Shown here: one piece after another, positions 4,717 through 64,000 of the stretch
Position numbering within the stretch: position 1 is the stretch's first letter
How the letters are laid out: the number at the start of each line of letters is the position of its first letter
From: Eledone cirrhosa
Lineage: Eukaryota
Assembly (NCBI GenBank): GCA_964016885.1
Contig: OZ024740.1
Coordinates: 206,708,001-206,772,000, forward strand
Direction of reading: 5' to 3'
Length of the DNA: 64,000 nt
The notes under the pieces: model-generated
The model's input: the letters and a program-made list of their open reading frames with translations, nothing else
Told to the model about the DNA's origin: nothing
Databases searched by the model: none
Translations under genes and position numbers: made by a program

Positions 4717-5027
4717 TTAGTTATGTAATAAACAACATAAGATAATTATGTCATTGACCAGCGGTTTCTTGAAAGCAAACAAATCTGCTTTCAGTCATCA
4801 GAATGAAAAAATCCTGGTGTTTTTATTGAATGTGGATTTGAAACCCACATTCAATAAAAACACCACGATTTTTTCATTCTGACGACTGAAAGCAGATTTG
4901 TTTGCTTTCAAGAAACCGCTGGTAAATGAAATAATTATCTTATGTTGTTTATTACATAACTAATAAGCTCTGTAACCTACATAAGGTACTCTTTTTTCCT
5001 GGACCTTTCCGACAGAATTACTTCATT
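4717..5027 (+). mobile_element. Hairpin-shaped Penelope pLTR remnant (inverted arm + arm + unique tail)
   Basis: ~120-bp inverted arms 4717-4837/4843-4963, then a 64-nt tail; same family at 25617-25864; contains hammerhead motif. Confidence 0.75.
4872..4931 (+). ncRNA. Type I hammerhead ribozyme motif (mirror copy on - strand ~4749-4808)
   Basis: Stem I tttcatt/aatgaaa; CTGACGA; stem II tgaaagcaga..tttgctttca; GAAA-CC-gct-GG-TA (GUA site; GUC in the mirror copy). Confidence 0.8.
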
Positions 5028-5061
<34 letters not shown>

Positions 5062-5062
5062 A

Positions 5063-8000
5063 AAAAGTGTGTAATAACTGTAGTTATATATATATAACAG
5101 TGTAATAACTGTAGTTATATATATATAACAGTGTAATAACTGTAGTTATATATATAACATTACACTGTTATATAACTGTAGTTATATATATATAACAGTT
5201 ATATAACTGTAGTTATATATATAACAGTGTAATAACTGTAGTTATATATATATAAGTGTGTAATAACTGTAGTAATATATACAACAGTGTGCAATAACTG
5301 TAGTTATATATATAACAGTGTGTAATAACTGTAGTTATACATATAACAGTGTAATAACTGTAGTTATATATATAACAGTGTAATAACTGTAGTTATATAT
5401 ATAACAGTGTGTAATAACTGTAGTTATATATATAACAGTGTAATAACTGTAGTTATATACATAACAGTGTGTAATAACTGTAGTTATATATATAACAGTG
5501 TAATAACTGTAGTTATATATATAACAGTGTAATAACCGTAGTTATATATATAACAGTGTAATAACCGTAGTTATATTTATAACATTGTGTAATAACAGTA
5601 GTTATATATATAACAGTGTAATAACTGTAGTTATATATATAACAGTGTAATAACTGTAGTTATATACATAACAGTGTGTAATAACTGTAGTTATATATAT
5701 CACAGTGTAATAACTGTAGTTATATTTATAACAGTGTGTAATAACTGTAGTTATATATATAACAGTTTAATAACTGTAGTTATATATATAACAGTGTAAT
5801 AATCGTAGTTATATTTATAACAGTGTGTAATAACTGTAGTTATATAAATAACAGTGTAATAATTGTAGTTATATATATAACAGTGTAATAACTGTAGTTA
5901 TATACATAACAGTGTGTAATAACTGTAGTTATATATATATAACAGTGTAATAACTAGTTATATATATAACAGTGTAATAACTGTAGTTATCTATATAAAA
6001 GTGTGTAATAACTGTAGTTATATATATAAAACAGTGTAATAACCGTAGTTATATATATAAAAGTGTAATAACTGTAGTTATATATATAAAAGTATGTAAT
6101 AACTGTAGTTATATATATAACAGTGTAATAACTGTAGTTATATATATAACAGTGTGTAATAACTGTAGTTATATATATAACAGTGTAATAACTGTAGTTA
6201 TATACATAACAGTGTGTAATAACTGTAGTTATATATATAACAGTTTAATAACCGTAGTTATATATATAACAGTGTAATAACCGTAGTTATATTTATAACA
6301 GTGTAATAACTGTAGTTATATATATAACAGTGTGTAATAACTGTAGTTATATATATAACAGTGTAATAACTGTAGTTATATAATAACTGTAGTTATATAT
6401 ATAACAGTGTAATAACTGTAGTTATATATATATAACAGTGTAATAACTGTAGTTATATATATAACAGTGTAATAACTGTAGTTATATAACAGTGTAATAA
6501 CTGTAGTTATAAATATAACAGTGTAATAATTGTAGTTATACAACAGTGTAATAACTGTAGTTATATAACAGTGTAATAACTGTAGTTATATATATAACAG
6601 CGTAATAACTGTAGTTATATATATAACATTGTGTAATAACTGTAGTTATATATATAACAGTGTAATAACTGTAGTTATATATATAAAAGTGTAATAACTG
6701 TAGTTATATATATAAACGTATGTAATAACTGTAGTTATATATATAAAAGTGTAATAACTGTAGTTATATATATAACAGTGTGTAATAATTGTAGTTATAT
6801 ATATAACAGTGTTATAACTGTAGTTATATATATAAAAGTGTGTAATAACTGTGGTTATATATATAACAGTGTAATAACTGTAGTTATATATATAACAGTG
6901 TGTAATAACTGTAGTTATATATATATAACAGTGTAATAACTAGTTATATATATAACAGTGTGTAATAACTGTAGTTATATATATAAAAGTGTGTAATAAC
7001 TAGTTATATATATAACAGTGTAATAACTGTAGTTATATATATATAACAGTGTAATAACTAGTTATATATATAACAGTGTGTAATAACTGTAGTTATATAT
7101 ATAAAAGTGTAATAACTGTAGTTATATATATAAAAGTATGTAATAACTGTAGTTATATATATAAAAGTCTAATAACTGTAGTTATATATATAAAAGTATG
7201 TAATAACTGTAGTTATATATATAACAGTGTAATAAGTGTAGTTATATATATAACAGTGTAATAACTGTAGTTATATATATAACAGTGTAATAAGTGTAGT
7301 TATATATATAACATTACACTGTTATATAACTGTTATCTAACTGTATTTATATATATATAACTGTTATATAACTGTAGTTATATATAACTGTTATATAACT
7401 GTAGTTATATATATAAAAGTGTTTAATAACTGTAGTCATATATATAACAGTGTAATAACTGTAGTTATATATATAACAGTGTAATAACTGTAGTTATATA
7501 TATAACAGTGTAATAACTGTAGTTATATATATAACAGTGTGTAATAACTGTAGTTATATATATAACAGTGTAATAACTGTAGTTATATATATAACAGTGT
7601 AATAACTGTAGTTATATACATAACAGTGTGTAATAACTGTAGTTATATATATAACAGTGTAATAACTGTAGTTATATATATAACAGTGTAATAACTGTAG
7701 TTATATATATAACAGTGTAATAACTGTAGTTATATATATAACAGTGTAATAACTGTAGTTATATATATAACTGTTTCTACTTTAGGCACAAGGCCAGCAA
7801 CTACCCAGTTCATTACTGGTACTTTATTTTATCAACCCCGTAAGGATGAAAGGCAAAGTCAACCTCGGCGGGATTTGAACTCGGATCGTAAAGGGACGTA
7901 ACTATGCTGTAGTTATATATATAACAGTGTTTAATAACTGTAGTTATATATAACAGTGTAATAACTGTAGTTATATATATATAACAGTGTAATAACTGTA

Positions 8001-8452
8001 GTTATATAACAGTGTCATAACTGTAGTTATCTATATATAACAGTGTAATAACTGTAGTTATATATATAACAGTGTAATAACTGTAGTAATATATATAACA
8101 GTGTAATAACTGCATTTATATATGTAAAAGTGTGTAATAACTGCAGTTATATATATAACAATGTAATAACTGTAGTTATATATATAACAGTGTAATAACT
8201 GCATTTATATATATAAAAGTGTGTAATAACTGCAGTTATATATATAACAGTGTAATAACTGTAGTTATATATATAACAGTGTAATAACTGTAGTTATATA
8301 TATAACAGTGTAATAACTGTAGCTATATATATATATATAAAAGTGTGTAATAACTGCAGTTATATATATAACAGTGTAATAACTGCATTTATATATATAA
8401 CAGTGTAATAACTGCATTTATATATATAAAAGTGTGTAATAACTGTAGTTAT
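5063..8452. repeat. AT-rich ~27-31 bp minisatellite, ~3.4 kb
   Basis: Unit gtgtaataactgtagttatatatataaca with variable (TA)n; interrupted by a SINE fragment at 7771-7907. Confidence 0.95.
7771..7907 (-). mobile_element. SINE fragment inside the minisatellite
   Basis: Family core aaggatgaaaggcaaagtcaacctcggcgggatttgaactc. Confidence 0.8.
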
Positions 8453-8567
8453 AAGTATAAAATCAATCAAAGTGTTAAAAAAACTTTCCTAAGTGGTTCA
8501 AAATTATCCCAACGAATACAAGGCCATCTACAAACACGTGAAAACGACCAAAACTTTCAAATCACCC

Positions 8568-9891: not shown

Positions 9892-10678
9892 GACTCAGAC
9901 TCAGACTCAGAAGATACCGCGTCTTGCGACGCATGAGGCAATCATAGTGTTCCATCGCGTTCGGTCAGCTGCCAGTTGCACAGCGTCCCGCCATTGTCTG
10001 TTTGTCGCTCGCAGGTTCCTCTCAACTGTCTGGCGCCAGTTCATTTTGGGCCGCCCTCTCCGTCTGCTTCCCTGCGGGCTCCATTTAAGTACTTGGTTCG
10101 CCAGTCTCTCCGGGGGAAGTCTCAAAGCGTGTCCAAACCAGACCAGGCGTCGTTTACAGATGGTAGAAGAGACTAGCTGCTGGTTGGTGCGGTTCCTGAC
10201 TTCCTGGTTTGTTACATGGTCACTCCATTTAATCCCCAGGATCTTTCGCAGACATCTGGAATCGAATGCGTCCAACTTCTTCTCTTGTCTGGTCTTAAGG
10301 TGCCATGTTTCACTTCCGTACAAGAGTGTGGACAGCACGTTGCTGTTGTAGAATCTCATCTTTGTTTTGAGGGTGAACTTCCTGCTCTTCCAGATCTTGT
10401 CAAGCTGGTTAAATGCTTCTGAAGACTTTCCCATTCTACATTGCAGTTCACTGTCCATGGTGCCCTCATTGTTAATGGAGCTTCATATGTAGGTGAAGTT
10501 GTCCACTATCTCCACCTCCCCTGTTCAATGAAGACACTGGTTGGTGGTGGGTGTGTCCCAGATAACATGCTTTTGGTCTTCTTGGCACTGATATTGAGAC
10601 CTAAGCTTCCTGCTTCGACATTGATATTGTTCACAATGATTTGCAGGTCAGCTGTGCTCTCTGCAAGTGCAGCAATAA
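9892..10678 (-). mobile_element. RTE-clade LINE, 5'-truncated, with (GTCTGA)n tail
   Basis: ORFs 10506-10697 (GLNISAKKTKSM) and 9907-10458 (LLYGSETW, WFGHALR, RRRGRPKMNW); tandem tail after the stop. Confidence 0.88.
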
Positions 10679-25864: not shown

Positions 25865-27384
<1,520 letters not shown>

Positions 27385-33272: not shown

Positions 33273-33379
<107 letters not shown>

Positions 33380-33784
33380 TGGTTACACAACAGTTAGTTC
33401 ACCATACCGAGAACAATTGTTTCACCTTAGCGGATCCTCAGCTTGTAATGGACATGGTTATACGGAACAGGAAGGACAACCGTACGAACGCGCATGCGTA
33501 GAAACGATCACTTCACACAGGCAATACTAAAATGCGTGCGAGAGGTGTAAGGGAGATAACTGTGAAAGTCCGAAAAGTTTCTAGTTGATAAGAACATTAG
33601 GATGTTGTTGTAATTCAATCCGGAGCTTTGTAGTTACGTAAGAGGTGTTTCGAGACGTGTGGACAACGTGTGAAGAATTCATTTTTCGTGTTTAGGCAAT
33701 CGCTATTGCCGGAAAACCCGCCTCTTCAACGACGGAGTAGCCTGGGCAAAGAAGTCAACAACTTCAGACCTATTCGACGTCTCC

Positions 33785-34950
33785 ATGGGATCGTTTGACA
33801 GTGCTGACGTATGCGACTTGGTTGGTCTATTTATTTTAGACATATTACGTGTTAGATTCCCGGACTTCCACACGGGAATATACCGTGACGATGGACTGAT
33901 TTTATCGAGCCATAAAAGTGGTCACGACCTTGACTGGTTTAAAAAAGACTTAGCTTCTACCTTCAATGAGTTAGGACTTAGGATAACAGTAGCTACCAAC
34001 CTCTCTAGCGTATATTTCTTAGACATTAATTTAGACCTTCGCACACACACCTACAGACCCTTCCATAAGCTAAACGAAAAACTCAATTACATTCACAAGG
34101 ACTCATGCCACCCTCCCACTGTATTTAGAAACTTCGTAAATAATATAAGTACTAGAATCTCAAACATCTCCTCTAATAAGGCTATCTTTGACAGGGCGGC
34201 ACCCTCCTATAACACGGCGTTAGCTAACAGCGGCTTCTCGCAACCTATCAGTTACTCTCCCACTATCAACAACAGCAATAAGAAAAGAAAACGTAACAAT
34301 AAACAAACTATCTGGTTCTCTCCTCCCTTCTCACTCAACGTTAAAACCAATGTAGGCAAAACATTTCTAGCCCTCTTAGATAGACACTTTCCCATACGTC
34401 ATAAATACCGCTCCATCTTTAACCGACACAAAGTTAAACTAGGATACTCCTGCGCTAAGAACATGAAGGCCCACATCACCAACAGCCCTAAGAGCAACAC
34501 TCCACCAGGGTGCTCTTGCCGTAAGCCCGAAGCTTGTCCCCTTCAACAGCAATGTAACACACCCGCTGTAGTTTATGAAGCTGTGGTCACTTCCAACCGA
34601 CCAAATCAGCCACAAGAGGTCAAATCCTATGTGGGTATGGGGAGGGCCGATTTAAGGAACGCTTCCTGAACCACCAGTCTACCTTCAGATACCCGGAAGA
34701 CATTCATCCACGAAACTCGCGAGCCAAGCCACGTATGGTCCTTCAAGGACTCAAGTATAGACTACTCCATTCAATGGAAAGCCATCACTAAGTCCAAGCC
34801 ATACGCAAGAGGAAATCCGTCGTGTGGACTATGTATTGATGAACGAATAAATATTCTAAAGAGATTATGCAATAGCGATTGCCTAAACACGAAAAATGAA
34901 TTCTTCACACGTTGTCCACACGTCTCGAAACACCTCTTACGTAACTACAA
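33785..34950 (+). pseudogene. PLE reverse transcriptase C-terminal part + GIY-YIG endonuclease (frameshift near 34650)
   Basis: MGSFDSADVCDLVG, GIYRDDGL, FLDI, CSCRKPEACPL, VVYEA..SYVG. Confidence 0.9.
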
Positions 34951-35126
34951 AGCTCCGGATTGAATTACAACAACATCCTAATTTTCTTATCAACTAGAAA
35001 CTTTTCAGACTTTCGCAGTTATCGCCCTTACACCTCTCGCACGCATTTTAGTATTGCCTGTGTGAAATGATCGTTTCTACGCATGCGCGTTCGTACGGTT
35101 GTCCTTCCTGTTCCGTATAACCATGT

Positions 35127-35176
35127 CCATTACGAGCTGAGGATCCGCTAAGGTGAAACAATTGTTCTCGGTATGG
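35127..35176 (+). ncRNA. Minimal type I hammerhead in pLTR (mirror copy ~33402-33451, minus)
   Basis: ccat-ta-cgag CTGAGGA t-cc-gctaa-gg-t GAAA caattg TT ctcg-gt-atgg; palindromic stem III. Confidence 0.7.
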
Positions 35177-35265
35177 TGAACTAATTATTGTGTAACCACT
35201 TCTACCTAACTCGTCCCATGGACTGAGTGCTCTACCACTACGGATATTACCTTCCAGTGTTCTAC

Positions 35266-36980: not shown

Positions 36981-37196
36981 TAATAATAATAGTGTATTTC
37001 TAACTATAATTTTTTCTTATAAAAATTCCTTAAATTTTCTTACACCATAATATTAATATTAGCCTCTCTTTTTTTCTTTCTTCTTCCATTTATAAATTAT
37101 CCTAATAATTATTTAAATTTACCTAGCGTCTAAATATAACGATCTTTTTTCAGCCTTATGTTTCAACCCTATTTACATATTCATCCTAAAGATTTA

Positions 37197-38026
<830 letters not shown>

Positions 38027-38680: not shown

Positions 38681-39769
38681 TCCCACTCCGATGAGACTCT
38701 ATGGTTGAAAATAATTTTACGGTGTGGTATTTATTTACATCCAGGGAGACCTGGCTATTTGAGTTGTGGTGGGAAGCGAATGGACCTACCTTTCGTCTCT
38801 GCTTGGATTCCGACTGAATGTCCACAATTACAGAGCCTCTCTCGCACACAATCATATCACGTCTACACCAGGCTACGATCTGACGAAAAAGAGACAATGA
38901 TAGGCACCCGAACCCTGATATGACGTCACTGGTCCCTCGCATCCGACAAGACCTCCCCACACTTCCGGCACTTTTTTTTCGGCAGCCCCGTAGTGTAAAA
39001 GTGTATCAGGCTTTGGTGCTTTGTGGGTAGAATGGGGGATTCAGAAAATTCTGCGCGGACACCTCTAATCCGCAGTAATACTAAGGCGGATTTTTGGAAT
39101 AAGTTATCACAGTAACATTTCTAAATTTGAAGGTGCACCATTGAAAAGTAGGGGGTATTGTCAAACAGTGCTCACTTTTGGTTATAGGTCCGTATAAACA
39201 TAAGACTATTGCTAGGAGATAATCTTTTGTCAAGCTCTAAATTTGTAATCTGAAATCCTGTTCTCTGACACGTTCGTTCCCTAAGAAATATCGATAATTG
39301 AGATTAAAGAAGAAGAAAAAATAAAGATATATATTAATTCATGGCAATATAATGAATGAAAAAGCAGAGAAATAACAAAATACCATAATACTAAGATGGC
39401 GGTTGTTACGTGAAGAATATTAACTGAACTAATGACGTCAAACAAATGTTTTGCAGAATGTTTTCATGAAGGTGGAAATAGGAGAAATACTCGGAATGTT
39501 GTTCCTCGTTATACGTAGAATCATTCAGCTTTATAATAAACACTGACAGCCTGTTAGTAAACACTGGTCGTTGTCACTGAATATTTGGGAAGTTGGCCAA
39601 CAACATACAACTAAGGTTTCTCACATAATCAAGAAGCCTGAACTTTTGTTTCGTATTAGACGAACCGAAATTGGAATTTGTTTTCTTCATGCTTTCCCCA
39701 TAACCACCCACGCCTCTCTCTCACACGTCTCAGAAGTTATAAAAGAAAAGTCACGGGCGTGTATGTCTG

Positions 39770-39812
<43 letters not shown>

Positions 39813-40030
39813 CTGGGATGGACACACGCGTATAACTTGCTGAGTAAGTTCTGTTTAAATTTCTATAGAAATTCTTGTCTGATAACTTTAATTTTTGTAC
39901 CATTTTGTAGAGGGACTGCCAGGTCAAACTTTGATCTGGTCAGTCTCTCAAAATATTCTACGCCTTTAGGCGAAATAGTTAAACAAAAAAAAAAAAGTTT
40001 TTTCTTGTTGAAAAGTCAATATTTTTTTAA

Positions 40031-41825
40031 ATGGCCGAAGCTTCTTCACCAAAATTCGAAGGAGGAAAGGGGAAGATGAACTTACAGCTTCCCCCTGCCA
40101 CTGTCACAGTAGCAGAGGTCAAGAAGAAAGGTCAGCCAGAGGAAGAATTCTCTCCACCTGTTAACCGACAACTTGACGTTGCCATGGCAACAACCCAAAG
40201 AATCAGCAGCAACAGCAACAACAACAACAATGCGACGGACGAAAACAACACCAATAACAATAACAATAACAACAACAACAAGACCAATAACGGTGACAAC
40301 AACAACAATGATAACAACAACACCACCAACGACAACAACAACAACACAAACAAACAAAATTTCTCCTTCGCCGAGACGACAAGGAAAACCCTCGACTATC
40401 TGCCAGTAGATATAACAAAAGCGAAGGAGCTACTGGCGGATGCGAAAAAATATATAGTGTACGGGGAAAATGGTTCATTCACAATCCATTCCCCCCCGGA
40501 ACTAAAAAGCCAGAGACTCCTAAACACGGTCATGTTTAGGACAATCTCGAACAAAAGTAAAAAACCAGCTCAACCATCACAGAGCGAGATAGAGCTGGTT
40601 TTAAAAGACGTCATGAAGGACATCACCTTCATTCAGAAGGATAGACTCTACGGGAGTCTATCCATTCTCATGAAGGACAGGGACACAGCAGTGAAACTGT
40701 CCATCAAACCAATCACATCCACCGCATACACCTTCTACCCTACGTACATGGGTAGAAGAACACAAAAAATAAAAATCCACACCATCCTGCCGATTATGGA
40801 CATATGGTGGGTTTTGACAGGTTTTCTGGACCTGGAGGATGACATGCTGGTGTCCATGGGAAAGGCATCGGGTGACGCGTTCAGTGGAACGAGCCTCGAA
40901 CTTGTAGTTCAAATGAGGCCCGAAAGGATCGCCCAGATCCCTGAACGCGTCATACTGGATGATCTAACCTTCATCAACATTACCGTTGAGGGTAGACGGC
41001 CCTCGTGTTACCTCTGCGGAACCAGAGGTCACCTGAGGGCTGTCTGTCCCCAACTTAATAAGAAAACCCCAATCCTGCCTACACCACCAACAACTGCACA
41101 ACCAACACAATCACCACAACTACCACTACAAAAACAACCACCACAGCTCAAACCAAAACAAAACAATGTCCAACCCATCCCCTCCACTCAAAAAACAAAA
41201 ACAATTTCCAAAACACCCGTACCGCAAACACAACCCGAAAATATACCCCTCCCCTCCAACGCGGAAGATGACCCTAGTTCGTCGTCAGACGAGGAGGAGC
41301 ACTTCCACACAATCAAAAGAAAAAAAAAGAAAACACACCTCAGACACACAAATGAAAAAAACCCCTCCCCAAAACATAACACTGACACCAACACAAAAGA
41401 GCTCACAACAGCAAACAAAAAACACCACACAAAAACAAAAACATGCATACACATACATAAATACAAGAAACAAAAAACTGTTAAACATTGTGTACAACAA
41501 CAATCTAATAAAAACACAAGGGCCTAACTTCACCCAGGCAGGGGATTTCCCCCACCTCAAAATGATTAAGGCCCCACAGGACACCTATAAAACTTTAAAA
41601 AACAATTTTAAAGAGGACGTGGGTCCCCCCTGCGTCGGGCCCATTAACCGCGTCCTCCTAAAAAACTATCCCACCCCCTCCCCAAACACCCACACAACTC
41701 CAAGCTCCCCAACCACACAACACACTGATGCCCCCACACTTCCACAAACCACCACCCCACCCAACAACCCATCCCCCACCCTAATGGAAATTGTGCAGCC
41801 CGATACCCGGGACGCAGAGAGGTAA
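40031..41825 (+). CDS. Tx1 ORF1 (zinc-knuckle protein), one frameshift in the A-rich linker
   Basis: CYLCGTRGHLRAVC knuckle; the C-terminus homologous to the second element lies in frame 41166-41825. Confidence 0.82.
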
Positions 41826-41849
41826 GTGCCTTTTCTCTTCACCACCAAC

Positions 41850-44800
41850 ATGGCTATGCTAAGAGTAGGCTGTTTAAATGCGCGTGGCCTGGGCTCAACT
41901 TGGAAGCAAGCAATGCTTCTAAATGACCTCAGGTCACAACGTATAGATGTGATGGTTATTTGCGAGGCCCGGATCAGCAACGTGCGACAGCTGGCCCCCA
42001 CCTTTGATGACTTTGAGATGCACGCATCTCTCTGTCAGCCCGGAGGTGGGGGTGGAGTTGTCGTTCTGCTGCAAAAACATCTGGGTCTCGCAACACAGAT
42101 GGTACATTTGGACCCGGAGGGTCGACTAGTGGTTCTGGACCTTGGCAGTGGTAAAGGCGGAGCGTTTAGGTTGGTAGCCGCCTACGGCCCTTTCGGGTCA
42201 ATGCGGCCGGACTTCTTCCATCGTCTGGAGACTTTTCTGGGGACGTCCCGCTCCTTGCTATTAGTGGGGGACTGGAATGGTATCCTAGATGCACGCTGGG
42301 ACTACGTAGGGGCCTGTCCCGATAGAGAGGGGTGTAATAGCCTCAAAGGGTTAATCGGTCGATTTGACCTGGCCGATAGATATCGACTAGATTTTCCGAC
42401 TGCGCCAACCTGGACTTGGGCAAATCGTAGCGGATCATCTAGGTCGTACCTAGATAGGTTCTTAGTTAGAATTAAGGATAAGGACTTTTTAAGTTGTCCA
42501 AAAATGCGCATGGTTGGCTATTCAGACCACAAATTAGTGACCTGCATGGTCAACCTTGACAGAACTCATAGACAGGGCCCCGGTTACTGGAAGCTCAACT
42601 TGTCCTTGCCGGCAAGTAGAGCCTACAGGAATCGGATTAGTACGTTAGTTAAGGAACGGTTGACTGGAGCGATCGTCAACAGCAGGTGGTGGGTATCTCT
42701 AAAGAGAGAGATTAGAGTAGTCTCGATAGAATTTAGTAAGGTTCTAGCTGCGGATAGGAATAGGAAGGAAAGGGAGCTAATAGATAGAGTAGAAGAGGCA
42801 ATTAGAAGCGGCGACGTGGCCAGAGTGCTAGCGTCGAGAACGGCTTTGAGCCAGTTTTTCGACGCGAAGCACGAAGGCTGCGTTGTCCGAAGTAAAATAC
42901 GTGCTCTAGGGAACGAGGGGACCAAAGCTGTTAGCTGGGCCCGCGTGACAGAGGCCAACAGTGGAACTAAATCCACCATCCGGTCTTTGCAAGACCTGGA
43001 TGGACGGGCGATTCTTGAGCCTAAGCAGATGTGTGAGGCCTTTCAAAGGCACTTTGCCCGACTGTTCGGGAGGGGCGGGGAGCCGGTTGGGAACGTGGAC
43101 TTCGGTCCATACCTCGACGGCCTGCCGCGCCTCTCGGACAGGGAGGCGAAGTCCTGCGAGGAGCCGATTTCGGCCGCTGAGATAGAGGACGTGCTGAGCC
43201 AATGCGGCAAACGCAAATCCCCGGGTCTCGATGGTCTTCCTTACGAATTATATCTAGCTATGCCGGACTTGTTCCCCGATCTCCTCGAGGCGGTCTACTG
43301 CAACTGGCAACAGAACGGGAGAATTCCCTGTACTGTGACCAAGGGCGTAGTCACGCTAGTGAGGAAGGACGAGAACAAGGGGGACGAAATAAGTAACTTC
43401 AGGCCCATAACTCTGCTAAATACAGAGTTACAGATTTTGGCCAAGGTGCTAGCAAAGAGGTTGGCGCTTGTCGTGGGCAACCTGGTGGGAGATGCGCAGA
43501 CATGCGCTATCCCGTCCAGGTCCATCCATGACAACCTCCACCTCATGCGATACATCATAGAGAGGGTTGGGAACGAACCCGGCTTTGGTGGGGCTCTGAT
43601 CAACTTGGATCAATCTAAGGCGTTCGATAGGGTCGACCATGGTTACCTGGATGCGGTGCTAGCGGCGGCAGGCTTCGGACCCGTTTTCAGGGGCTGGATC
43701 ACTGCTATGCACAGCAGCCGCATCTGCTCTAGGGTCAAGGTGAACGGCTACCTCTCGGAGCCGTTCAAAATCGCGCGGTCCATCCGACAGGGGTGCCCTC
43801 TCTCCTCCCTTCTGTATGTGTTGACTCTCGAGCCACTACTGCGGAAGTTGGAGTTGTTGCAGGGCATCCCTTTGGAACCGGGATTGCGGAAAGCGGTGTC
43901 GGCCTACGCCGATGACGTGACAGTAATGGTGTCGACGGCCTCCGAAATCGAGGCGGTCGGCACCTTACTGGAGGAGTACGAAAAGTTCACAGGGGCTAAG
44001 CTGAACCGGGACAAGTCGATCGGTTTGCAACTCGGCACGTGGAGGGGCAGACCGATGCCCTCCGATGGCGTCGTCGGACGCTGGACGGAGGGCCCGGTGA
44101 AGTTGCTCGGGGTCTGGTTCGGACCGGACCTCCAGGTGGAGAAAAACTGGGCGGAGGTTACGAACAGGGTGTTTGCACTGACCCAGAAGTGGGCCAGTTG
44201 CAAACTATCCCTGAAAGGTCGGGCGGAGGTGGCGAACACCTACATAGCGTCCGTCATCTACTACCGCCTGACCGTAGTGCCCTGCCCAAGGGAAACCCTC
44301 ACCAAGATGGAGCGCGCGCTCTTCCAATTCCTTTGGAAGAGGCGGGCTCCTATGGTGAGGAGATCCATCTGCTGTCAACACCCTTCGAAAGGAGGGCTGG
44401 GGATGCCGTGGCTAATGATGCGTAAACACGCATTAAGGCTACGGCACCTCTACGTATTCCTCACCGGACAACCGGTGTGGGCCTCGTTTGTGAGGCGAAC
44501 CTTTCCCAGACTCGTCTCACTCACCGAGCTGCAATCCTGGGTCAAGCAAAGACCGAGAAAACTGGGCGCCTGGCACACTGAGTGTGCCCAGGCGCTCACC
44601 GCCCTCTGGCAGGCGGATCCGGTTATCAGTGGAGACTCCACCGCAACATTCTATAGAGGGCTGGTACGCAGCAGGTGCGACGACGCCCTCGGAGAAGCCC
44701 TAGACATGGAGGAGGACGAACTAGCCAGCCTGTTCGGTAGGACATTCAGCCCGGGACCTATGGACAACTTCCAGAAGTCCCTGGCCTGGCAGTGCTACCG

Positions 44801-45287
44801 AGGGGCTTTACCCGTTCGAGAAAGGCTCTACAGACACGGGCGCCCGGGTAGGGACCCCGCCAAAAAGATCTGTCCCAGATGCGTGTGCGACGAGGAAACC
44901 GTTGCACACGCATTGGTACACTGCTCGGGCGTAGCCGATCTGTGGGGCTATGTCGAACAACTGCTGTCAAGGGTGGGACCGATCCGGTTGACCACCGAGT
45001 CTATTGTAATGATCAAGCCGCCTCCCCCCTTCAAAGATGAAGCAGAGGCGGTGTTTCTGTGCGTAATAGCCATGGCGAAAGAGGTTGTATGGTGGACGCG
45101 TCTGAAAGGACTGAGGTCAGGCACCTTTCTCTCTGGCCAACAACTGGTCCGTTTCTTCCGATATCATTTCGGAAGAAGGATCAGGATGGAGAGAGAGGTG
45201 CTGCACCCCAGCCGTTTCTATGAAAGATGGGTGAAAGTGGCGAGAATGGCCCGTGTGAATGGGCCTTCACTCTACATCAGACTATAG
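41850..45287 (+). CDS. Tx1 ORF2: APE endonuclease, reverse transcriptase, C-terminal zinc finger; intact
   Basis: LNARGL, GDWN, YLDRFL, SDHKLV; KSPGLDG, FRPITLLN, DQSKAFDRVDH, IRQGCPLS, YADD; CPRC..ETVAHALVHC. Confidence 0.96.
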   Translation: MAMLRVGCLNARGLGSTWKQAMLLNDLRSQRIDVMVICEARISNVRQLAPTFDDFEMHASLCQPGGGGGVVVLLQKHLGLATQMVHLDPEGRLVVLDLGSGKGGAFRLVAAYGPFGSMRPDFFHRLETFLGTSRSLLLVGDWNGILDARWDYVGACPDREGCNSLKGLIGRFDLADRYRLDFPTAPTWTWANRSGSSRSYLDRFLVRIKDKDFLSCPKMRMVGYSDHKLVTCMVNLDRTHRQGPGYWKLNLSLPASRAYRNRISTLVKERLTGAIVNSRWWVSLKREIRVVSIEFSKVLAADRNRKERELIDRVEEAIRSGDVARVLASRTALSQFFDAKHEGCVVRSKIRALGNEGTKAVSWARVTEANSGTKSTIRSLQDLDGRAILEPKQMCEAFQRHFARLFGRGGEPVGNVDFGPYLDGLPRLSDREAKSCEEPISAAEIEDVLSQCGKRKSPGLDGLPYELYLAMPDLFPDLLEAVYCNWQQNGRIPCTVTKGVVTLVRKDENKGDEISNFRPITLLNTELQILAKVLAKRLALVVGNLVGDAQTCAIPSRSIHDNLHLMRYIIERVGNEPGFGGALINLDQSKAFDRVDHGYLDAVLAAAGFGPVFRGWITAMHSSRICSRVKVNGYLSEPFKIARSIRQGCPLSSLLYVLTLEPLLRKLELLQGIPLEPGLRKAVSAYADDVTVMVSTASEIEAVGTLLEEYEKFTGAKLNRDKSIGLQLGTWRGRPMPSDGVVGRWTEGPVKLLGVWFGPDLQVEKNWAEVTNRVFALTQKWASCKLSLKGRAEVANTYIASVIYYRLTVVPCPRETLTKMERALFQFLWKRRAPMVRRSICCQHPSKGGLGMPWLMMRKHALRLRHLYVFLTGQPVWASFVRRTFPRLVSLTELQSWVKQRPRKLGAWHTECAQALTALWQADPVISGDSTATFYRGLVRSRCDDALGEALDMEEDELASLFGRTFSPGPMDNFQKSLAWQCYRGALPVRERLYRHGRPGRDPAKKICPRCVCDEETVAHALVHCSGVADLWGYVEQLLSRVGPIRLTTESIVMIKPPPPFKDEAEAVFLCVIAMAKEVVWWTRLKGLRSGTFLSGQQLVRFFRYHFGRRIRMEREVLHPSRFYERWVKVARMARVNGPSLYIRL

Positions 45288-45551
45288 GTGAGGAAGATGA
45301 AAGACCAAGGGAGCACCCCTTCTCTGTGCTCCTGAGGAGAAGGGTTGCACACTTTTTTCGGGGGTGTGTGCGACCCCCCAAGGCGCCTCCTCTCTATTGA
45401 GGATTTTGTTAAAAATTTTATTTTTTGTTATATCTTATTTTATTTTTATATTTTGTTATTGCCTCCTCCTTATTGAGGACGCCTTTTTGTGTAAACTCCC
45501 CCCTTTGTACTTGTCCCACTTTTGATGCCCTAGTGGCAAATAAAAGAAACA

Positions 45552-45614
<63 letters not shown>

Positions 45615-45625
45615 TAAATAAAGAA

Positions 45626-45715
<90 letters not shown>

Positions 45716-45716
<1 letters not shown>

Positions 45717-46910
45717 CTTTGGAAGAGGCGGGCTCCTTTGGTAAGAAGATCCATCTGCTGCCAACACCCTTCTAACGGAGGGCTGGGGATGCCGTGGTTG
45801 ACGATGCGCAAACACGCGCTCAGGCTGCGGCATCTCTACGTATTCCTCACCGGACAACCGGTGTGGGCCCCGTTCGTGAGGCGAGCCTTCCCACGACTCG
45901 TCTCACTGACCGAGCTGCAGTCCTGGGTCAAGCAGAGACCGAGGAAAATGGGCGACTGGCACATCGAATGTGCTCAGGCGCTCACAGCCCTCTGGCAGGC
46001 GGACCCGGCGATCAGTGGAGACTCCACTTCGTCATTCTATAGAGGGTTGGTCCGCAGCAAGTGCGACGACGCGCTCGGTGAAACTCTAGGCGTGGAGGAA
46101 GATGAACTGGCCAGTCTGTTCGGTAGGACCTTCCGCCCGGGACCGATGGACAACTTCCAAAAGTCCCTGGCCTGGCAGTGCTACCGAGGAGCTCTACCAG
46201 TTCGAGACAAGCTCTACAGACATGGGCGCCCGGGCAGGGACCCTGCAAAAAAGATCTGTCCGAGGTGCGTGCGAGACGAAGAAACCGTCGCGCACGCATT
46301 CATACACTGCCCGGGCGTCACTGACCTGTGGGGCTATGTAGAACGACTATTGTCGCGGGTGGGACCAATCCAGTTGACCACCGAGTCCATTGTCATGATC
46401 AAACCGCCACCCTCCTTCAAAAACGAAGGAGAGGCGGTTTTCCTTTGTGTGATAGCTATGGCGAAAGAGGTTGTATGGTGGACAAGGTTGAAAGGGCTGA
46501 GGTCAGACACCTTTCTCTCCGGCCAACAACTGATTCTTTTTTTCAAATACCACTTTGGAAGAAGAATCAGGATGGAGAGAGAGGTGCTGTACCCCAGCAA
46601 GTTTTATGAAAGGTGGGTGAAAGTGGCGAGAATGGCCCGAGTGAATGGGCCTTCTCTCTATATCAGCCTGTAGGTTGAGGAAAAGGAGGAGGAGAGGAAA
46701 GGAGTACAAGCTCTTCGTACTCCTGGAGATGAGGGTTGCACATTTTTTTCGGGGGTCTGTGTTACCCATATAAACTGTCTCCCTCTATTGGGGAAAATCG
46801 ACTAACTTTTAAATTCCATCTGTGATAACATTTTACACGTTTTTATTGTATGTAAACTTCCCCCTTTGTATTTGTCCCCTTCTTTTGTGCCCCTGTGGCT
46901 AATAAAGAAA
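45716..46910 (+). mobile_element. 5'-truncated Tx1 copy
   Basis: ORF 45738-46673 matches the ORF2 C-terminus; ends aataaagaaa + (TCTA)n. Confidence 0.93.
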
Positions 46911-46925
46911 TATATCTATCTATCT

Positions 46926-47825
46926 ATCAGTGGAGACTCCACTTCGTCATTCTATAGAGGGTTGATCCGCAGCAAGTGCGACGACGCGCTCGGAGAAACT
47001 CTAGGCGTGGGGGAAGACGAACAGGCCAGTCTGTTCGGTAGGACCTTCCGCCCGGGACCGATGGACAACTTCCAAAAGTCCCTGGCCTGGCAGTGCTACC
47101 GAGGAGCTCTACCAGTTCGAGACAAGCTCTACAGACATGGGCGCCCGGGCAGGGACCCTTCGAAAAATATCTGTCCGAGATGCGTGCGAGACGAAGAAAC
47201 CGTCGCGCACCCATTCATACACTGACCGGGCGTTACCGACCTGTGGGGCTATGTAGAACGACTATTGTCGCGGGTGGGACCAATCCAGTTGACCACCGAG
47301 TCCATTGTCATGATCAAACCGACACCCTCCTTCAAAAACGAAGGAGAGGCGGTTTTCCTTTGTGTGATAGCTATGGCGAAAGAGGTTGTATGGTGGACAA
47401 GGTTGAAAGGGCTGAGGTCAGACACCTTTCTCTCCGGCCAACAACTGATTCTTTTTTTTCAAATACCACTTTGGAAGAAGAGTCAGGATGGAGAGAGAGG
47501 TACCCCAGCAAGTTTTATGAAAGGTGGGTGAAAGTGGCGAGAATGGCCCCCAGTGAATGGGCCTTCTCTCTATATCAGCCTGTAGGTTGAGGAAAAAGAG
47601 GAAGAGAGGAAAGGGGTACAAACTCTTCGTACTCCTGAAGATGAGGTTTGCACATTTTTTTCGGGGGTATGTGTTACCCATATGAACTGTCTCCCTCTAT
47701 TGGGGAAAATCGATTAACTTTTAATTTACAATTGTGATAACATTTTACACGTTTTTATTGTATGTAAACTCCCCCCACCTTTGTAATTGTCCCCTTCTTT
47801 TGTGTCCCTGTGGCTTATAAAGAAA
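46926..47825 (+). mobile_element. 5'-truncated Tx1 copy (disrupted)
   Basis: Homologous to 46011-46910; (TCTA)n on both sides. Confidence 0.93.
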
Positions 47826-47845
47826 CATATCTATCTATCTATCTA

Positions 47846-48661
47846 GAGGAAGATGAACTGGCCAGTCTGTTCGGTAGGACCTTCCGCCCGGGACCGATGG
47901 ACAACTTCCAAAAGTCCCTGGCCTGGCAGTGCTACCGAGGAGCTCTACCAGTTCGAGACAAGCTCTACAGACATGGGCGCCCGGGCAGGGACCCTGCAAA
48001 AAAAATCTGTCCGAGGTGCGTGCGAGACGAAGAAACCGTCGCGCACGCATTCATACACTGCCCGGGCGTCACTGACCTGTGGGGCTATGTAGAACGACTA
48101 TTGTCGCGGGTGGGACCAGTCCAGTTGACCACCGAGTCCATTGTCATGATCAAACCGCCACCCTCCTTCAAAAACGAAGGAGAGGCGGTTTTCCTTTGTG
48201 TGATAGCTATGGCGAAAGAGGTTGTATGGTGGACAAGGTTGAAAGGGCTGAGGTCAGACACCTTTCTCTCCGGCCAACAACTGATTCTTTTTTTCAAATA
48301 CCACTTTGGAAGAAGAATCAGGATGGAGAGAGAGGTGCTGTACCCCAGCAAGTTTTATGAAAGGTGGGTGAAAGTGGCGAGAATGGCCCGAGTGAATGGG
48401 CCTTCTCTCTATATCAGCCTGTAGGTTGAGGAAAAGGAGGAGGAGAGGAAAGGAGTACAAGCTCTTCGTACTCCTGGAGATGAGGGTTGCACATTTTTTT
48501 TCGGGGGTATGTGTTACCCATATAAACTGTCTCCCTCTATTGGGGAAAATCGACTAACTTTTAAATTCCATCTGTGATAACATTTTACACGTTTTTATTG
48601 TATGTAAACTTCCCCCTTTGTATTTGTCCCCTTCTTTTGTGCCCCTGTGGCTAATAAAGAA

Positions 48662-48662
<1 letters not shown>
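47846..48662 (+). mobile_element. 5'-truncated Tx1 copy
   Basis: Nearly identical to 46095-46910; (TCTA)n on both sides. Confidence 0.93.
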
Positions 48663-48740
<78 letters not shown>

Positions 48741-48831: not shown

Positions 48832-50880
48832 AGGGGGGAGGAGGAGAAGAGGGCAGGGAAGGCATGTTAGTATGTTAGTTGGGGAAGGGTGGTCGGATGA
48901 GGGGTGGAGTGGAGGTGTTAGTATTGTTAGTTGTGGGGTGGGCGGTGAAAAGGAGGGGTGTGTTAGTGGTGTTAGTGGGGGATATGTGTGGAGGGAGGGG
49001 GGCGGTCGAAGGCTAAAGGAATAAGGGTGGGGAGTTCAGGCCGGGGGGAGTGTGGGTCTGTAAGATGAAGATGGTTCTTTGTTCGACTCTGAGGAGATTG
49101 GCGGGTGTTCCGTGGCATTGGAGTAGGCCACAGACTGTGAGATGGCGTGCGGAATGTCTAGGGGCACCAAAGTGGCGGGCGATGGGGAAACTACCACCGA
49201 GAAGAATATCCCGGAGGTGCTCAGTGAATCGGTCCGCCAGGCGACGTCCCGTCTGTCCGACGTAAGTCGCGCTGCACTCAGTGCAGCGAAGTCCGTAGAC
49301 TAGGTTGGAGGAGGTGCAGCGGAAGGTATGCCGGACAGAGAGAGAGAGTGGCCGTTGGGACCCTGGAAGGTGGTGGTGGTGGTGATGTGGGGACAGGTGT
49401 TGCAGCGGGGCCTAGAACAGGGAAAGGAACCGGGGGGGGGGAGCGTGGGTTGGGGGGGTAGAGAGCTGTGGACGAGGAGGGTGCGGAGATTGCGTGCGCG
49501 TTTGAAGGAGGGGAGTGGTGGGGTTGGGAAGATGTGGGAGGTGGAGGGGTCGAACTGGAGGCGTCGGAAGAGGCGGCGGATGGTGCGGTGGAGGGGTAAG
49601 GTGGAGGGGTGGTAGGCGATGGGGAAGGGGAGACGGTGGGTGGGTGTGCGGTGGCGTGGGGTGAGGGTGGTGGAGCGGTGGACAGCACGGGTGCGGGTGA
49701 GAGCGGTGTGGACGAGAGAGGGGGTAACCTCTGCGGATGAAATGGCTGACTAGGGAAAGGGCCTGGGACTCGAAGTCAGCATCTCGGCTACAGAGGCGGC
49801 GGATCCTGAGGAGTTGGGAGTAGGGAATAGAGTGTTTAGTGTGTGTGGGGTTGGAAGAGGTGAAGTCGAGGTAAGAGTGGGAGTCGGTGGGTTTGAAGAA
49901 GGCGGAGGTGACGAGGGAGTGGTGGGAGGGGTCGAAGGCGACGGAGATGTCTAAGAAGTGGACGTGGGTGGTGGAGATAGAGGTGGTGAAGTGGAGGGAG
50001 GGGTGGAAGGAGCAGAAGAAGGAGAGAAAGGAGTCGAGCTGTTCTCGGGTGAGGGTCGTGGCTCCGATACAGTCGTCAATGTAACGACCGTACAGTTCGG
50101 GCGTGGGGCCGGTGTACTGGGCAAAGATTTGGGCCTCAACATGGCCAACAAAAAGGTTGGCATAGTTCGGGCCCATTCTTGTACCCATGGCTAACCCCGT
50201 GACCTGTTGGTAAAATTCACCCGAGAAGGAGAAACAATTGAGGGTGAGGACCAGCTCGGCGAGGCGAAGGAGGGTGGGGGTGGAGGGAATGGGGGAGGGG
50301 CGAAGGTCGAGGTAGCGTTTGAGGGCGCGCAGGCCGTCGGCGTGGGGGATGACGGTATAGAGGGACTTGATGTCTAGGGTGAAGAGGAAGGGCTGTGGGC
50401 CGGGTGGGTAGGTGAAGGAGTCGAAAAGGCGCAGGGCGTAGTTGGTGTCGGAGATGTGGGAGGGGAGGGTGGTGACAAGGGGGGCGAGGATGGAGTCGAG
50501 AAAGGCGGAGATGAGTTCGGTGGGGCAGTTGCAAGCGGAGACGATGGGGCGACCGGGGTTGTCGGGTTTGTGGAGTTTGCGGAGGAAGTAGATGGTGGGG
50601 GTGCGGGGGGTGCGGACGATGAGGTGGGAAGCGGTGGGGGAGGGAGGAATGAGGAGGAGACAAGGTGGTGGATGGTGGAGGAAACTTGTTGTTGGTAGAG
50701 GGGTGTGGGATCGGAGGGTAGAGGGCGGTAGAAGAGGGGGTTACAGAGCTGCCTGAGGGCTTCGGCCGTGTAGAGGTCCGCGCGCCACACCACCACGGCG
50801 CCTCCCTTGTCCGCCGGTTTGATGACGATGTCATCTCGGCTACGGAGGGAGCGGAGAGCGAGGAGTTCGCCCCGTGAGAT
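48830..50880 (-). mobile_element. GC-rich Penelope-like element (RT + GIY-YIG), frameshifted
   Basis: KPADKGGAVVVW, GRPIVS, LDIKSLYT, MGTRMGPNYANLF, YGRYIDD; LVYGLRC..YVGQTGRRLADRFTEH near 49220-49310. Confidence 0.9.
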
Positions 50881-59789: not shown

Positions 59790-62700
59790 ACTAGCAAAAC
59801 ACACACTACTACACGGAACTCTCTTCCAACCTCGCTCTCTATATCAATTACCACTTGATATAGACGTGATTTACTTTGCTCCGGATTTTTGCGGATTGTT
59901 GTAAAAAAGAACTGTGAGTTTATTGATCAATTTAATAACATTGTTTGGTTTAGCCCCTTGCCTTGGCCGTCAGACGTTAAGTTAACAAATTTTCGCCCCT
60001 TTTTGGGGCGAAATTTTCAATTTTCATCTAAAAACTGTAGACTTGGTGGCAATGGATGCCATTTCCACCTCGCACACTGTCGTGAGTGCCACGCCCACTA
60101 AGAAAAGTGGTGGAGGAAAGCTAGGAGTACAAAGCTTGCAGCCGTCCCCCCTCGTATCATCGAAAAACGTGGAAAATATCGAAACCGCGAAACCAAATCC
60201 GGCAAATAATACCAGCACCAACAACAAGAACAATGACAACAACACCACAACCAACAACTGCAACAATAGCAACACCAATATTACCAACAGTGACAGTAAC
60301 ACGAAAGACAACAACACCAAAACAACATTTGCACAGACCGTAAAAAAAACGAACTATACACGCCAATAGACATAACAAATGCTAAACAACTATTACAAGA
60401 CGCAAAACAATTCGTGACTTTTGGCGAAAACGGTGCTTTTAGCATCAATTCTCCACAGGAATTACGTAGAGAGGCTGTCCTGAAAACCACAGTTTTCAGG
60501 ACAATATCGAACGTAACAAGAAAACCAGCTCAATTATCACAAAATGAAATTGAGCTGGTTCTAAAAGACGCAATGAAGGACTTAACCTTCATACAAAAAG
60601 GTAAACTGTTTGGTAGCATTTCGGTGCTGATGAACAACCAGTCAACAGCTCAAAAGTACTCGATAGCACCCATTGTGTCCCCCCACTTCACCTTTTACCC
60701 CACATACAGGGGAAAAAGGACACAAAGAATAAAAATAATGAGTATCACACCAAATGTAAACATTTGGTGGATACTATGTGGAATAATAAACTTTGACGAA
60801 GACAAGATAATTTCAATAGGAAAGTCCTCCGGAGGTGTATTTGGTGGGACCAGCGTAGAAGTTCTGGTGCAAATGAGCCCAGAACGAATAGCGAATATCC
60901 CACAACGCGCGCCTCTGGACGGGCTAACTTATATAAACATTTCAGTGGAGGGAAGGTGGCCGTCATGTTACCACTGCTTAAGCAGGGGTCACCTGAGGGC
61001 TGCCTGTCCTCAATTAACGAGTAAAAAAAAAAAGGCTCTTCTGCCAACCCCGAATACAACAACACAACCACCACCACCACCACCACAACAACACGGAAAA
61101 ATAACAACACAAAACACTGTTCCACCCAACCCCTCCCCACCTAAAACAAATACAAAAGCAACCACAACAAAACCCAAAAATATACCCCTCCCCAACAACA
61201 CGGAAGAGGACTCCGTATCAACGTCACCCAGTGACGACGAGGGAGAATCCTTTCAACAGGCGAAAAGGAAAAAAAAAAGGCACCACATTAACAAAAATGC
61301 CACAAACACACAACCACCAGCACAAACAGAACAAACATCACAAATAAAAAACCCACCCCTCCCCAAAACATAACACGTACTATAAAACGCAAACACCCGC
61401 AAGAACAACAAACAAAAACAGACACAACACAACAAAAAATCTATACATACATTAACAAGAACAATAAAACGTTGATGAAAGCGATAGAAAATAACCCTTC
61501 GGTGGAAACCGAAGGGACCACTTTCACCTACGCAGCGAACAAACCGCACCTAATGATGATTAGGGTCCCAACGGAAACCTATGTAACTTTGAAAAAGAAC
61601 CATCCAATGCATGTGGGGACCAACTGCACCAAACCACATAACAGCGTCCTATTGAGATGTTTCCCCACCCCCACACCAGACACCCACACCCCACCAAACA
61701 CCCTAATCCCACCACACCCTGATGTCCTCACCCCACCACAAACTACCACCCCACCAAACAACCCTTCCAACACCCCCATGGAAATTGTGCAGCCTGGTCC
61801 CCAGGAGACGAAGAGGTAAGTAATTTCCTTTCCTCTTCCTTTTTACCTCTTCAGCACCAACATGGCCAATATAAGAGTTGGATGTGTGAATGCACGCGGC
61901 TTGGGGATGTCCTGGAAACAGGGCAAACTCTTAAATGACCTCAGGTCGCACAGAGTGGATGTAATGGTTATTTGCGAGTCCAGGATCAGCAGCGAGCGCC
62001 AACTGGCCCCCATCTTCGACGACTTTGAGATCTACGCATCTCTCTGTCAGCCGAGGGGTGGGGGTGGGGTTGTCGTTCTGCTGCGAAAATACCTGGGTCT
62101 TGCCACACAGAAGGTACACCTGGACCCGGAGGGTCGACTGGTGGTTTTAGACGTCGGCAGTGGTGAAGGTGGAGCTTTCAGGCTGGTGGCACCGCGACCG
62201 GACTTCTTCCGACGCCTGGAGAATTTCCTGGGAACGTCTCGCTCCTTGCTTTTAGTGGGGGACTGGAATGGTATCCTGGATGCACGTTGGGACTATGTAG
62301 GGGCATGTCCCGATAGAGGGGGTGTAACAGCCTCAAACGATTAATCGGCCGATTTGATCTGGCCGATAGATATCGACTGGATTTTCCGACTGTGCCACGG
62401 TGGACGTGGAGTAATCGCAGCGGAACATCCAGGTCGTACCTAGATAGGTTCCTAGTTAGAAATAAGGATAGGGACATATTAAGCTGTCCACGAATGTTCA
62501 TGGTTGACTATTCGGATCACAAGTTGTTGACCGGAGTGGTCAACCTTGATAGAACTCATAGACAAGGACCCGGTTACTGGAAGCTAAACTTGTCTTTACC
62601 GACAAACAAAGCTTACAGTAAGCGGATTAGCACACTAGTTAAGCAGCGTTTGACGGGGGCAATTGTCAACAACAGGTGGTGGGGCTCTCTCAAGAGAGAA

Positions 62701-64000
62701 ATTAGAATAGAATCGATAGGTCTTAGTCGGGAATTAGCATCAGATAGGAATAGAACTGAAAGGGAATTAACAAATAGAGTAGAAGAGGCGATTAGGAGTG
62801 GCAACGTGGCCGGCGTGCTGGCGTCAAGAACGGCCCTAGACCAGTTCCTTGATGCGAAGCACGAGGGCTGCGTTGTCAGGAGTAAAATACGTGCTCTGGG
62901 AAACAAGGGAGCCAAAGCTGTTAGCTGGGCCCGAGTGACAGAGGCAAAAAGTGGAAACAAGTCCACGATTCGGTCTTTGAAGGACCAGGATGGACGCGTG
63001 ATCCTTGAACCTGAGCGGATGAGCGCAGCCTTTCAACGGCGCTTTGCACGACTGTTCGGGAAGGGCGGCGGGCCGGGCGGGGCCATGGATTTCGGTCCAT
63101 ACCTCGACGGTCTGGCGCGGCTCTCGGACGGTGAGGCGAAGTTCTGCGAGAGGCCGATTTCAGCCGCTGAAATAGGGGAAGCGCTGAGCCAATGCGGCAA
63201 ACGCAAATCTCCGGGTCTCGATGGTCTACCATACGAACTTTATGTAGCGATGCCGGGCTTGTTCTCCGGTCTCCTCGAGGCGGTCTACTGCAACTGGCAA
63301 CAGAACGGGAGAATTCCCAGTTCTGTGACCAAGGGCGTAGTCACGCTGGTGAGGAAGGACGAGAACAAGGGGGATGACATAGATAACTTCAGGCCCATAA
63401 CTCTGCTAAACACAGAGTTAAAGATTTTGGCCAAGGTGTTAGCGAAGAGGTTGGCGCTTGTCGTCGGGAACCTGGTGGGAGAAGCGCAGACATGCGCAAT
63501 CCCGTCCAGGTCCATACACGACAACCTCCACCTCATGCGATACATCGTAGAGAGGGTAGGGAACGAACCCGGCTTTGGTGGGGCCCTGATCAACTTGGAT
63601 CAATCTAAAGCGTTCGATAGGGTTGACCATCGGTACCTGGATGCGGTGCTCGCGGCGGCAGGCTTCGGACCCGTTTTCAGGGGCTGGATTGCTGCAATGC
63701 ATAGCAGCAACACCTGCTCGAGGGTCAAGGTGAACGGCTACCTCTCGGAGCCGTTCCAAATCACGCGATCCATTCGACAGGGATGCCCTCTCTCCTCCCT
63801 CCTGTATGTGCTGGCTCTCGAGCCACTACTGAGGAAGCTGGAGCTGTTGCAGGGCATCCCCTTGGAACCGGGATTGCGGAAAGCGGTGTCAGCCTACGCC
63901 GATGACGTGACAGTAATGGTGTCGTGCGCCTCGGAAATCGGGCAGATCGGCACCTCACTGGAGGAATATGAAAGGTTCACAGGAGCCAAGCTGAACCGGG
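59790..64000 (+). mobile_element. Second, diverged Tx1-clade element, truncated by window end
   Basis: ORF1 pieces 60043-60369, 60414-61373 (CYHCLSRGHLRAAC), 61472-61819; ORF2 from 61862 with a small deletion and a frameshift near 62320, RT YADD near 63895. Confidence 0.92.

Follow-up and report, generated by a model that had tools for sequence, protein, structure and literature searches.

The window analysed here is a 64,000-nucleotide stretch of the Eledone cirrhosa genome (contig OZ024740.1, positions 206,708,001 to 206,772,000, forward strand). It contains an array of Tx1-like long interspersed nuclear elements (LINEs) associated with the microsatellite (TCTA)n, which reads (GATA)n on the other strand. 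Inspection of the sequence, self-BLAST and a tract scan revealed six perfect (TCTA)n tracts, three copies of a subfamily B, one element of a subfamily A and a 12-bp fragment, all in head-to-tail order (window coordinates):

39766..39814, + strand: host (TCTA)n tract, left part, with a perfect (TCTA)10 at 39770-39809 and a terminal TCTCT
39815..45549, + strand: full-length Tx1-like LINE of subfamily A, from self-BLAST
45550..45614, + strand: junction tract CA + TA(TCTA)15, with a perfect (TCTA)15 at 45554-45613
45615..45626, + strand: 12-bp 3'-end fragment TAAATAAAGAAA of a further subfamily, identical in its end to the copy that lies upstream in locus L067
45627..45714, + strand: (TCTA)22 tract, from the tract scan
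45715..46910, + strand: B copy 1, 5'-truncated, starting at position 4648 of full-length B and 99.7% identical to the L068 copy
46911..46926, + strand: junction TATA(TCTA)3, with a perfect (TCTA)3 at 46915-46926
46927..47825, + strand: B copy 2, 5'-truncated and older, starting at position 4945 of full-length B and 95.0% identical to the L068 copy
47826..47845, + strand: junction CATA(TCTA)4, with a perfect (TCTA)4 at 47830-47845
47846..48662, + strand: B copy 3, 5'-truncated, starting at position 5028 of full-length B and 99.3% identical to the L068 copy
48663..48740, + strand: host (TCTA)19 tract, right part, with a perfect (TCTA)19 at 48663-48738

No other perfect (TCTA)3+/(TAGA)3+ tract exists in the whole window, and 6/6 of these lie at element junctions, so their association with the array is not due to chance. 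A preliminary description of this DNA had reported one full-length and three truncated copies on the same strand, with distinct 5' starts and TCTA on both sides, and the sequence and self-BLAST agree with it. It was also borne out in placing the 3' ends at ataaa(a)gaaa without poly(A), as the array shows AATAAA(A)GAAA plus 0-2 bases and then TATCTA, and in assigning the full-length and truncated copies to different subfamilies (A and B are 83-85% identical at the DNA level, while B copies 1 and 3 share 99.5% and copy 2 shows 95%). The 12-bp fragment at 45615-45626, which has a TCTA tract on either side, had been overlooked. The TCTCT at the right edge of the first tract is probably element A's own 5' start. 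Full-length A copies at other loci (L111-L140) mostly start with (A)TCT(CT)GGGATGG even where the flank is an imperfect tract, which suggests that the RNA 5' end of A carries target-like bases.

The earlier claim of independent insertion rather than tandem duplication stands for this array, in which four or five sequence types have distinct truncation points, each with TCTA on its 5' side, and a like architecture was found at many sampled loci. It does not extend to every array, since L063 is a true, plain tandem duplication with an identical 5' start. That the present array is likewise a duplication, or a mis-assembly, is highly improbable, even though B copies 1 and 3 are so alike and public contigs, which contain the element but say nothing usable about its target, do not bridge the array (repeats were skipped in that search).

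Element A potentially encodes two proteins, from the following open reading frames (ORFs):

40031..41825, + strand: ORF1, gag-like, with a CCHC knuckle at amino acid 326, frameshifted near 41320
41850..45287, + strand: ORF2, 1145 amino acids, with an apurinic/apyrimidinic endonuclease (APE), a reverse transcriptase (RT) and a C-terminal zinc motif, from Pfam and motifs

The ORF1 knuckle has the form CX2CX4HX4C, and a Pfam search gave no match for ORF1. In the window copy the first ORF1 frame stops at 41527 (498 amino acids) and the second ends at 41825; the frameshift consists of one additional A in an A-run relative to most other A copies, and reflects a mutation or else a homopolymer error. 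ORF2 is intact, as first described. Its Pfam domains are PF03372 (amino acids 23-227) and PF00078 (amino acids 512-755), with PF13966 under its cut-off, and the motifs N10, E39, Y112, GDWN, YLD, SDH and YADD were found. The catalytic motifs, including those of the endonuclease, are aligned among three subfamilies as well as with proteins from fish. ORF2 matches in the ESM Atlas were limited to generic endonuclease and RT clusters, and the PDB yielded no close relative of the endonuclease. An Rfam scan of the window gave no family; at the 5' end there was only a chance-level match, and therefore no ribozyme is claimed.

Junctions of sampled copies and origin of the repeat

The window lies on the 443-Mb contig C1 of a 3.0-Gb genome, in which exact motif patterns (reversed-pattern controls, 0 in each case) detected 6,471 B 3' ends, 4,982 A 3' ends and 366 A 5' ends, that is, at least 11,453 3' ends of A and B. 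The lineage has ten or more variants of its 3' end, spread over many loci and all of the form AATAAA..GAAA-NN-TATCTA, where NN differs within and between subfamilies. Junctions were sampled from the flanks of most of the first-listed sites on C1, in the first part of the contig, and this non-random sample took in only part of the 100 listed B sites. It comprised 142 copies with an anchored 3' end; the 5' junction was visible in 119, and the other 23 were dropped because their 5' end lay outside the locus. A 5' TCTA tract was called when a TCTA run of at least 8 bases lay within 30 nt upstream, array membership was labelled heuristically, and the background consisted of 13,320 30-nt windows from 20 evenly spaced stretches.

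A TCTA tract was present on the 5' side of 89/119 copies, compared with 34/13,320 background windows (0.26%), which makes the occurrence of the elements in (TCTA)n/(GATA)n some 300-fold higher than expected by chance. The proportion was 43/47 among copies at 98% identity or more and 46/72 among older ones. All of the copies reaching the element 5' end had it (17/17), as did 28/30 in a separate set of full-length A starts, 13 of them in arrays. The preliminary description had named, as the outcome that would speak against it, TCTA at the 3' end only with random 5' flanks. This pattern was absent: 39/65 truncated copies without another element immediately upstream carried a 5' tract (Fisher p ~1e-76 against the background), among them 19/22 of the young ones. 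On the 3' side TCTA was found in 112/142 copies, and NN-TATCT in 124/142. According to PMC4494074, the criterion of Kojima for a target-specific family of elements without long terminal repeats (non-LTR elements) is that more than 20% of flanks are of one sequence type, and both the 5' and the 3' proportions here lie above that value.

The orientation of insertion was fixed, since TAGA on the opposite strand occurred at 0/119 5' junctions. Survival only near microsatellites after random insertion, as proposed for Drosophila Waldo-A/B (PMC3812793), has a negligible probability in view of this fixed orientation, the base-precise phase of the junctions and an enrichment that peaks in the youngest copies.

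The same association was observed genome-wide. The B ends were followed by TATCTATC in 4,442/6,471 cases and by TATATATA, i.e. (TA)n, in 122/6,471, whereas in random DNA (TA)n exceeds (TCTA)n about 16-fold (coverage of 4.5% vs 0.28%). Perfect (TCTA)5+ tracts numbered about 34,223 (207,073 minus 172,850 pattern counts) and 5,758 of them (~17%) lay directly behind such a 3' end (control, 25), two counts that are not independent because insertions split tracts. In addition, 3'-end fragments of 10-26 bp with TCTA on both sides, a pattern class to which the fragment at 45615 belongs, gave 365 overlapping matches (control, 0).

The target-site duplications (TSDs) bear on the origin of the repeat. 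Exact duplications including repeat-breaking bases flanked 14/119 copies, while shuffled pairs gave a mean of 2.45 and a maximum of 7 (200 shuffles); the clear TSDs measured 12-25 bp and 12/14 started with TAT. One young A copy (99.6%), located in a background stretch (L181), is surrounded by non-repeat DNA and has a clean TSD of 15 bp but no TCTA; B copies in (TA)n have no TCTA tail either. Off-target copies without TCTA imply that the element ends at GAAA-NN and overlaps its target by at most TAT. Together with the TSDs, these copies show that (TCTA)n is a pre-existing insertion target, duplicated on landing, and not an element-encoded tail. It is very unlikely that the lineage instead encodes a (TCTA)n tail which seeds microsatellites, the arrays being insertions into older tails, although such seeding is described for snake CR1-L3 elements (PMC8303610), 43/119 copies lie directly behind another element, and the high 3' TCTA count and the share of tracts behind an element end agree with it. 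The 39 truncated copies with TCTA on the 5' side have host DNA upstream, unique bases at the edges of tracts are included in the TSDs and the off-target copies are tailless, so this explanation is largely refuted.

Proposed insertion mechanism and limits of the preference

Taken together, the array and the sampled junctions are probably best explained by a young Tx1-like lineage that inserted repeatedly, each time independently, where (TCTA)n was already present. The likely route is target-primed reverse transcription following a nick by the lineage's own APE endonuclease. The L1 endonuclease nicks at a TpA step. By analogy, the APE endonuclease is predicted to nick the (GATA)n strand at a TpA step within ~3 nt of the element end. 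The freed 3' end would prime by pairing with 1-3 nt at most (TAT) of the RNA end, and reverse transcription would start at GAAA-NN and could end after as little as 10 bp or as much as 5.8 kb. The TSD would result from a second nick at a distance of 12-25 bp. As TCTA remains on either side of every insertion, the regenerated site could be hit again, giving head-to-tail arrays of mixed subfamilies. Use of (TA)n, of (CCTA)n or of a single TAT site occurs at low rates. From the sequence we infer that the element's own endonuclease sets the GATA specificity; in PMC4494074 target choice is mainly attributed to the endonuclease.

As the main alternative, the RNA might instead chiefly set the target, read-through (UCUA)n transcripts pairing with GATA primers nicked by an endonuclease that only loosely prefers TA. 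We consider this unlikely. The frequency of NN-TATCT at the 3' junctions would suit such pairing, and with AATAAA only ~6-8 nt short of the end, the cleavage site may itself lie in the repeat. Moreover, L054 and L123 bear additional repeat units between the element end and the TSD, a pattern compatible with read-through of the RNA or with slippage, and RNA-end pairing is known as a co-determinant for RTE, R1Bm and R2Ol (PMC6007223). However, the off-target copies at L181, at L064 and in (TA)n lack RNA-derived TCTA, so pairing there amounts to TAT at most, and (TA)n, which offers TAT ~16 times more, receives ~36 times fewer B ends.

The choice of TCTA is a strong preference and not an absolute rule; the site-specificity first claimed for (TCTA)n holds in the former sense (89/119 vs 34/13,320), but some insertions are in (TA)n or (CCTA)n instead. 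Several observations weigh against insertion directed to TCTA by the endonuclease. No 5' TCTA tract was found in 30/119 copies, mostly older, several of which are alignment breaks inside the divergent ORF1, and one copy without it (L092) is young. Subfamily A is looser than B (3' TCTA in 27/44 vs 85/98), with copies in (TA)n (L144, L166, L167), (CCTA)n (L155, L163, L112) and (TCTATA/TCTATG)n (L152). The extra units of L054 and L123 count here as well, as do three weak matches among the 14 TSDs (L164, L042 and the tandem duplication L063). The sample, besides its non-random choice from C1, may include segmental duplicates. A decayed full-length relative at ~59.9-64 kb of the window sits in a CTCTATATC-rich minisatellite and has no TCTA tract on its 5' side. 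It spans 59880-64000 and continues in L071 to ~6480, is 76% identical to A and contains stops and frameshifts.

The remainder of the window carries other repeats. An ORF at 49412-50740 (- strand) has a weak RT match (E 1.8e-5) and is probably another retroelement, at a guess Penelope-like. A DUF6451 match (E 4.8e-10) at 9910-10482 (- strand) is probably a LINE remnant. Long, nearly perfect inverted repeats resembling foldback elements or miniature inverted-repeat transposable elements are present at 25889-27167, 33374-35204 and 37187-37970, with arms of 580 nt at 99%, 336 nt at 97% and nested 193-198 nt. A 60-bp tandem repeat (9.5 copies) occupies 1-568, and a 3.4-kb satellite of ~29/60-bp units lies at 5054-8460.

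Sister family, classification and known systems

A sister family (L189, L218-L243), 65-74% identical at the DNA level, was found via the background locus L189 and traced by a 17-base end motif with 26 matches. It is older and ends in AATAAATGAAAG. The C-terminal part of its ORF2 is 70% identical to protein P0001 and 81% to P0003. (TTA)n followed 14/26 of its 3' ends and preceded 7/20 visible 5' junctions (6/26 copies were dropped from the 5' count), compared with 102/13,320 background windows; as the copies are old and the sample small, a preference of the sister family for (TTA)n is suggestive only. Sister copies often neighbour a short interspersed repeat whose tail is rich in TTA and which appears to be a short interspersed nuclear element (SINE).

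The closest named homolog of ORF2 was an Argonauta hians protein (67% over the RT region). In a quick RT tree of 50 rows, A, B and D grouped with the Argonauta protein (100%), adjoining unnamed sequences (99%), within a 98% group that includes fish TX1-named proteins and leaves plant L1 outside. This separate 99%-supported branch lies outside the fish microsatellite cluster; Q76IM4 and Q76IM5 probably belong to the Kibi/Koshi series. ORF2 scored 264-324 bits against fish TX1-named and pol-like proteins and 166 bits against human L1, the latter with a different program. The Tx1 clade is characterized by a gag-like CCHC knuckle in ORF1, which is present here, together with an N-terminal APE endonuclease and an RT in ORF2. 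Membership of the Tx1 clade is likely rather than proven, since the quick tree has no bootstrap and no animal L1 row and its TX1 names are similarity-based. A metagenome scan with P0005 found none of the 39-45% identical relatives.

It is possible, and we suggest it tentatively, that this octopod Tx1 lineage acquired microsatellite targeting independently of Kibi/Koshi, that its endonuclease switched between (TTA)n and (TCTA)n, and that its young subfamilies were recently active. Two enzymes ~70% identical over the part compared would then be a natural pair for mapping APE sequence specificity, and one of them a candidate GATA-directed gene-insertion enzyme, possibly a tool for multi-copy gene insertion. 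How microsatellite targeting arose in APE-type LINE endonucleases is described as not well understood in PMC3812793. In the present family, young insertions number in the thousands, several subfamilies have an intact ORF2 and the target is unlike the pyrimidine runs of known Tx1 families; with a sister family that seems to prefer (TTA)n at hand, the question of specificity is directly testable by domain and loop swaps. The family also shapes the GATA repeats of its host, and markers placed on these will often have multi-copy LINE flanks.

Among known systems, Kibi and Koshi are teleost elements of the Tx1 clade that target (TC)n and (TTC)n (Kojima and Fujiwara 2004, via PMC4494074 and PMC3812793). 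They resemble the present family as APE-type LINEs in a microsatellite with a Tx1-like ORF2, but differ in target, (TCTA)n being no pure pyrimidine run, and in ORF2 (26-32% identical). In the present family (TC)n was found at the 3' side of scattered copies only (L027, L032), the junctions otherwise being TCTA. Dong (R4) carries a restriction-like endonuclease. Dong at (TAA)n, Waldo at (ACAY)n, Mino at (AC)n and Togen at (TG)n are likewise microsatellite-specific non-LTR elements, but belong to other clades and use other repeats (PMC3812793, PMC4640811); Togen is placed there with the NeSL-related families, whose clade has an endonuclease of the restriction-like type. The crocodilian Tx1-1_Crp group shares a preference for tetranucleotide repeats, judged by the same flank criterion, but targets (TTCC)n/(TTTC)n and is placed near Kibi/Koshi (PMC4494074).

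For Octopus vulgaris, PMC13282606 reports 13 active L1-Tx1 families and, in its Table 1, an active Dong-R4; the words 'GATA' and 'target' are absent from its main text. A literature search, with Repbase, Dfam and the Fig. 3 labels and supplements of PMC4494074 outside its scope, found no LINE targeting GATA/TCTA. The association with GATA repeats is real and well supported, and GATA appears to be a new target for a type of system already known, although an earlier database note is possible. The snake CR1-L3 elements lie beside the same repeat class (ATAG/AATAG), which PMC8303610 attributes to seeding by the LINE. A microsatellite tail at all 3' ends with random 5' flanks, as in CR1-L3, was not found here, where the TSDs and 5' flanks instead indicate insertion into the repeat.

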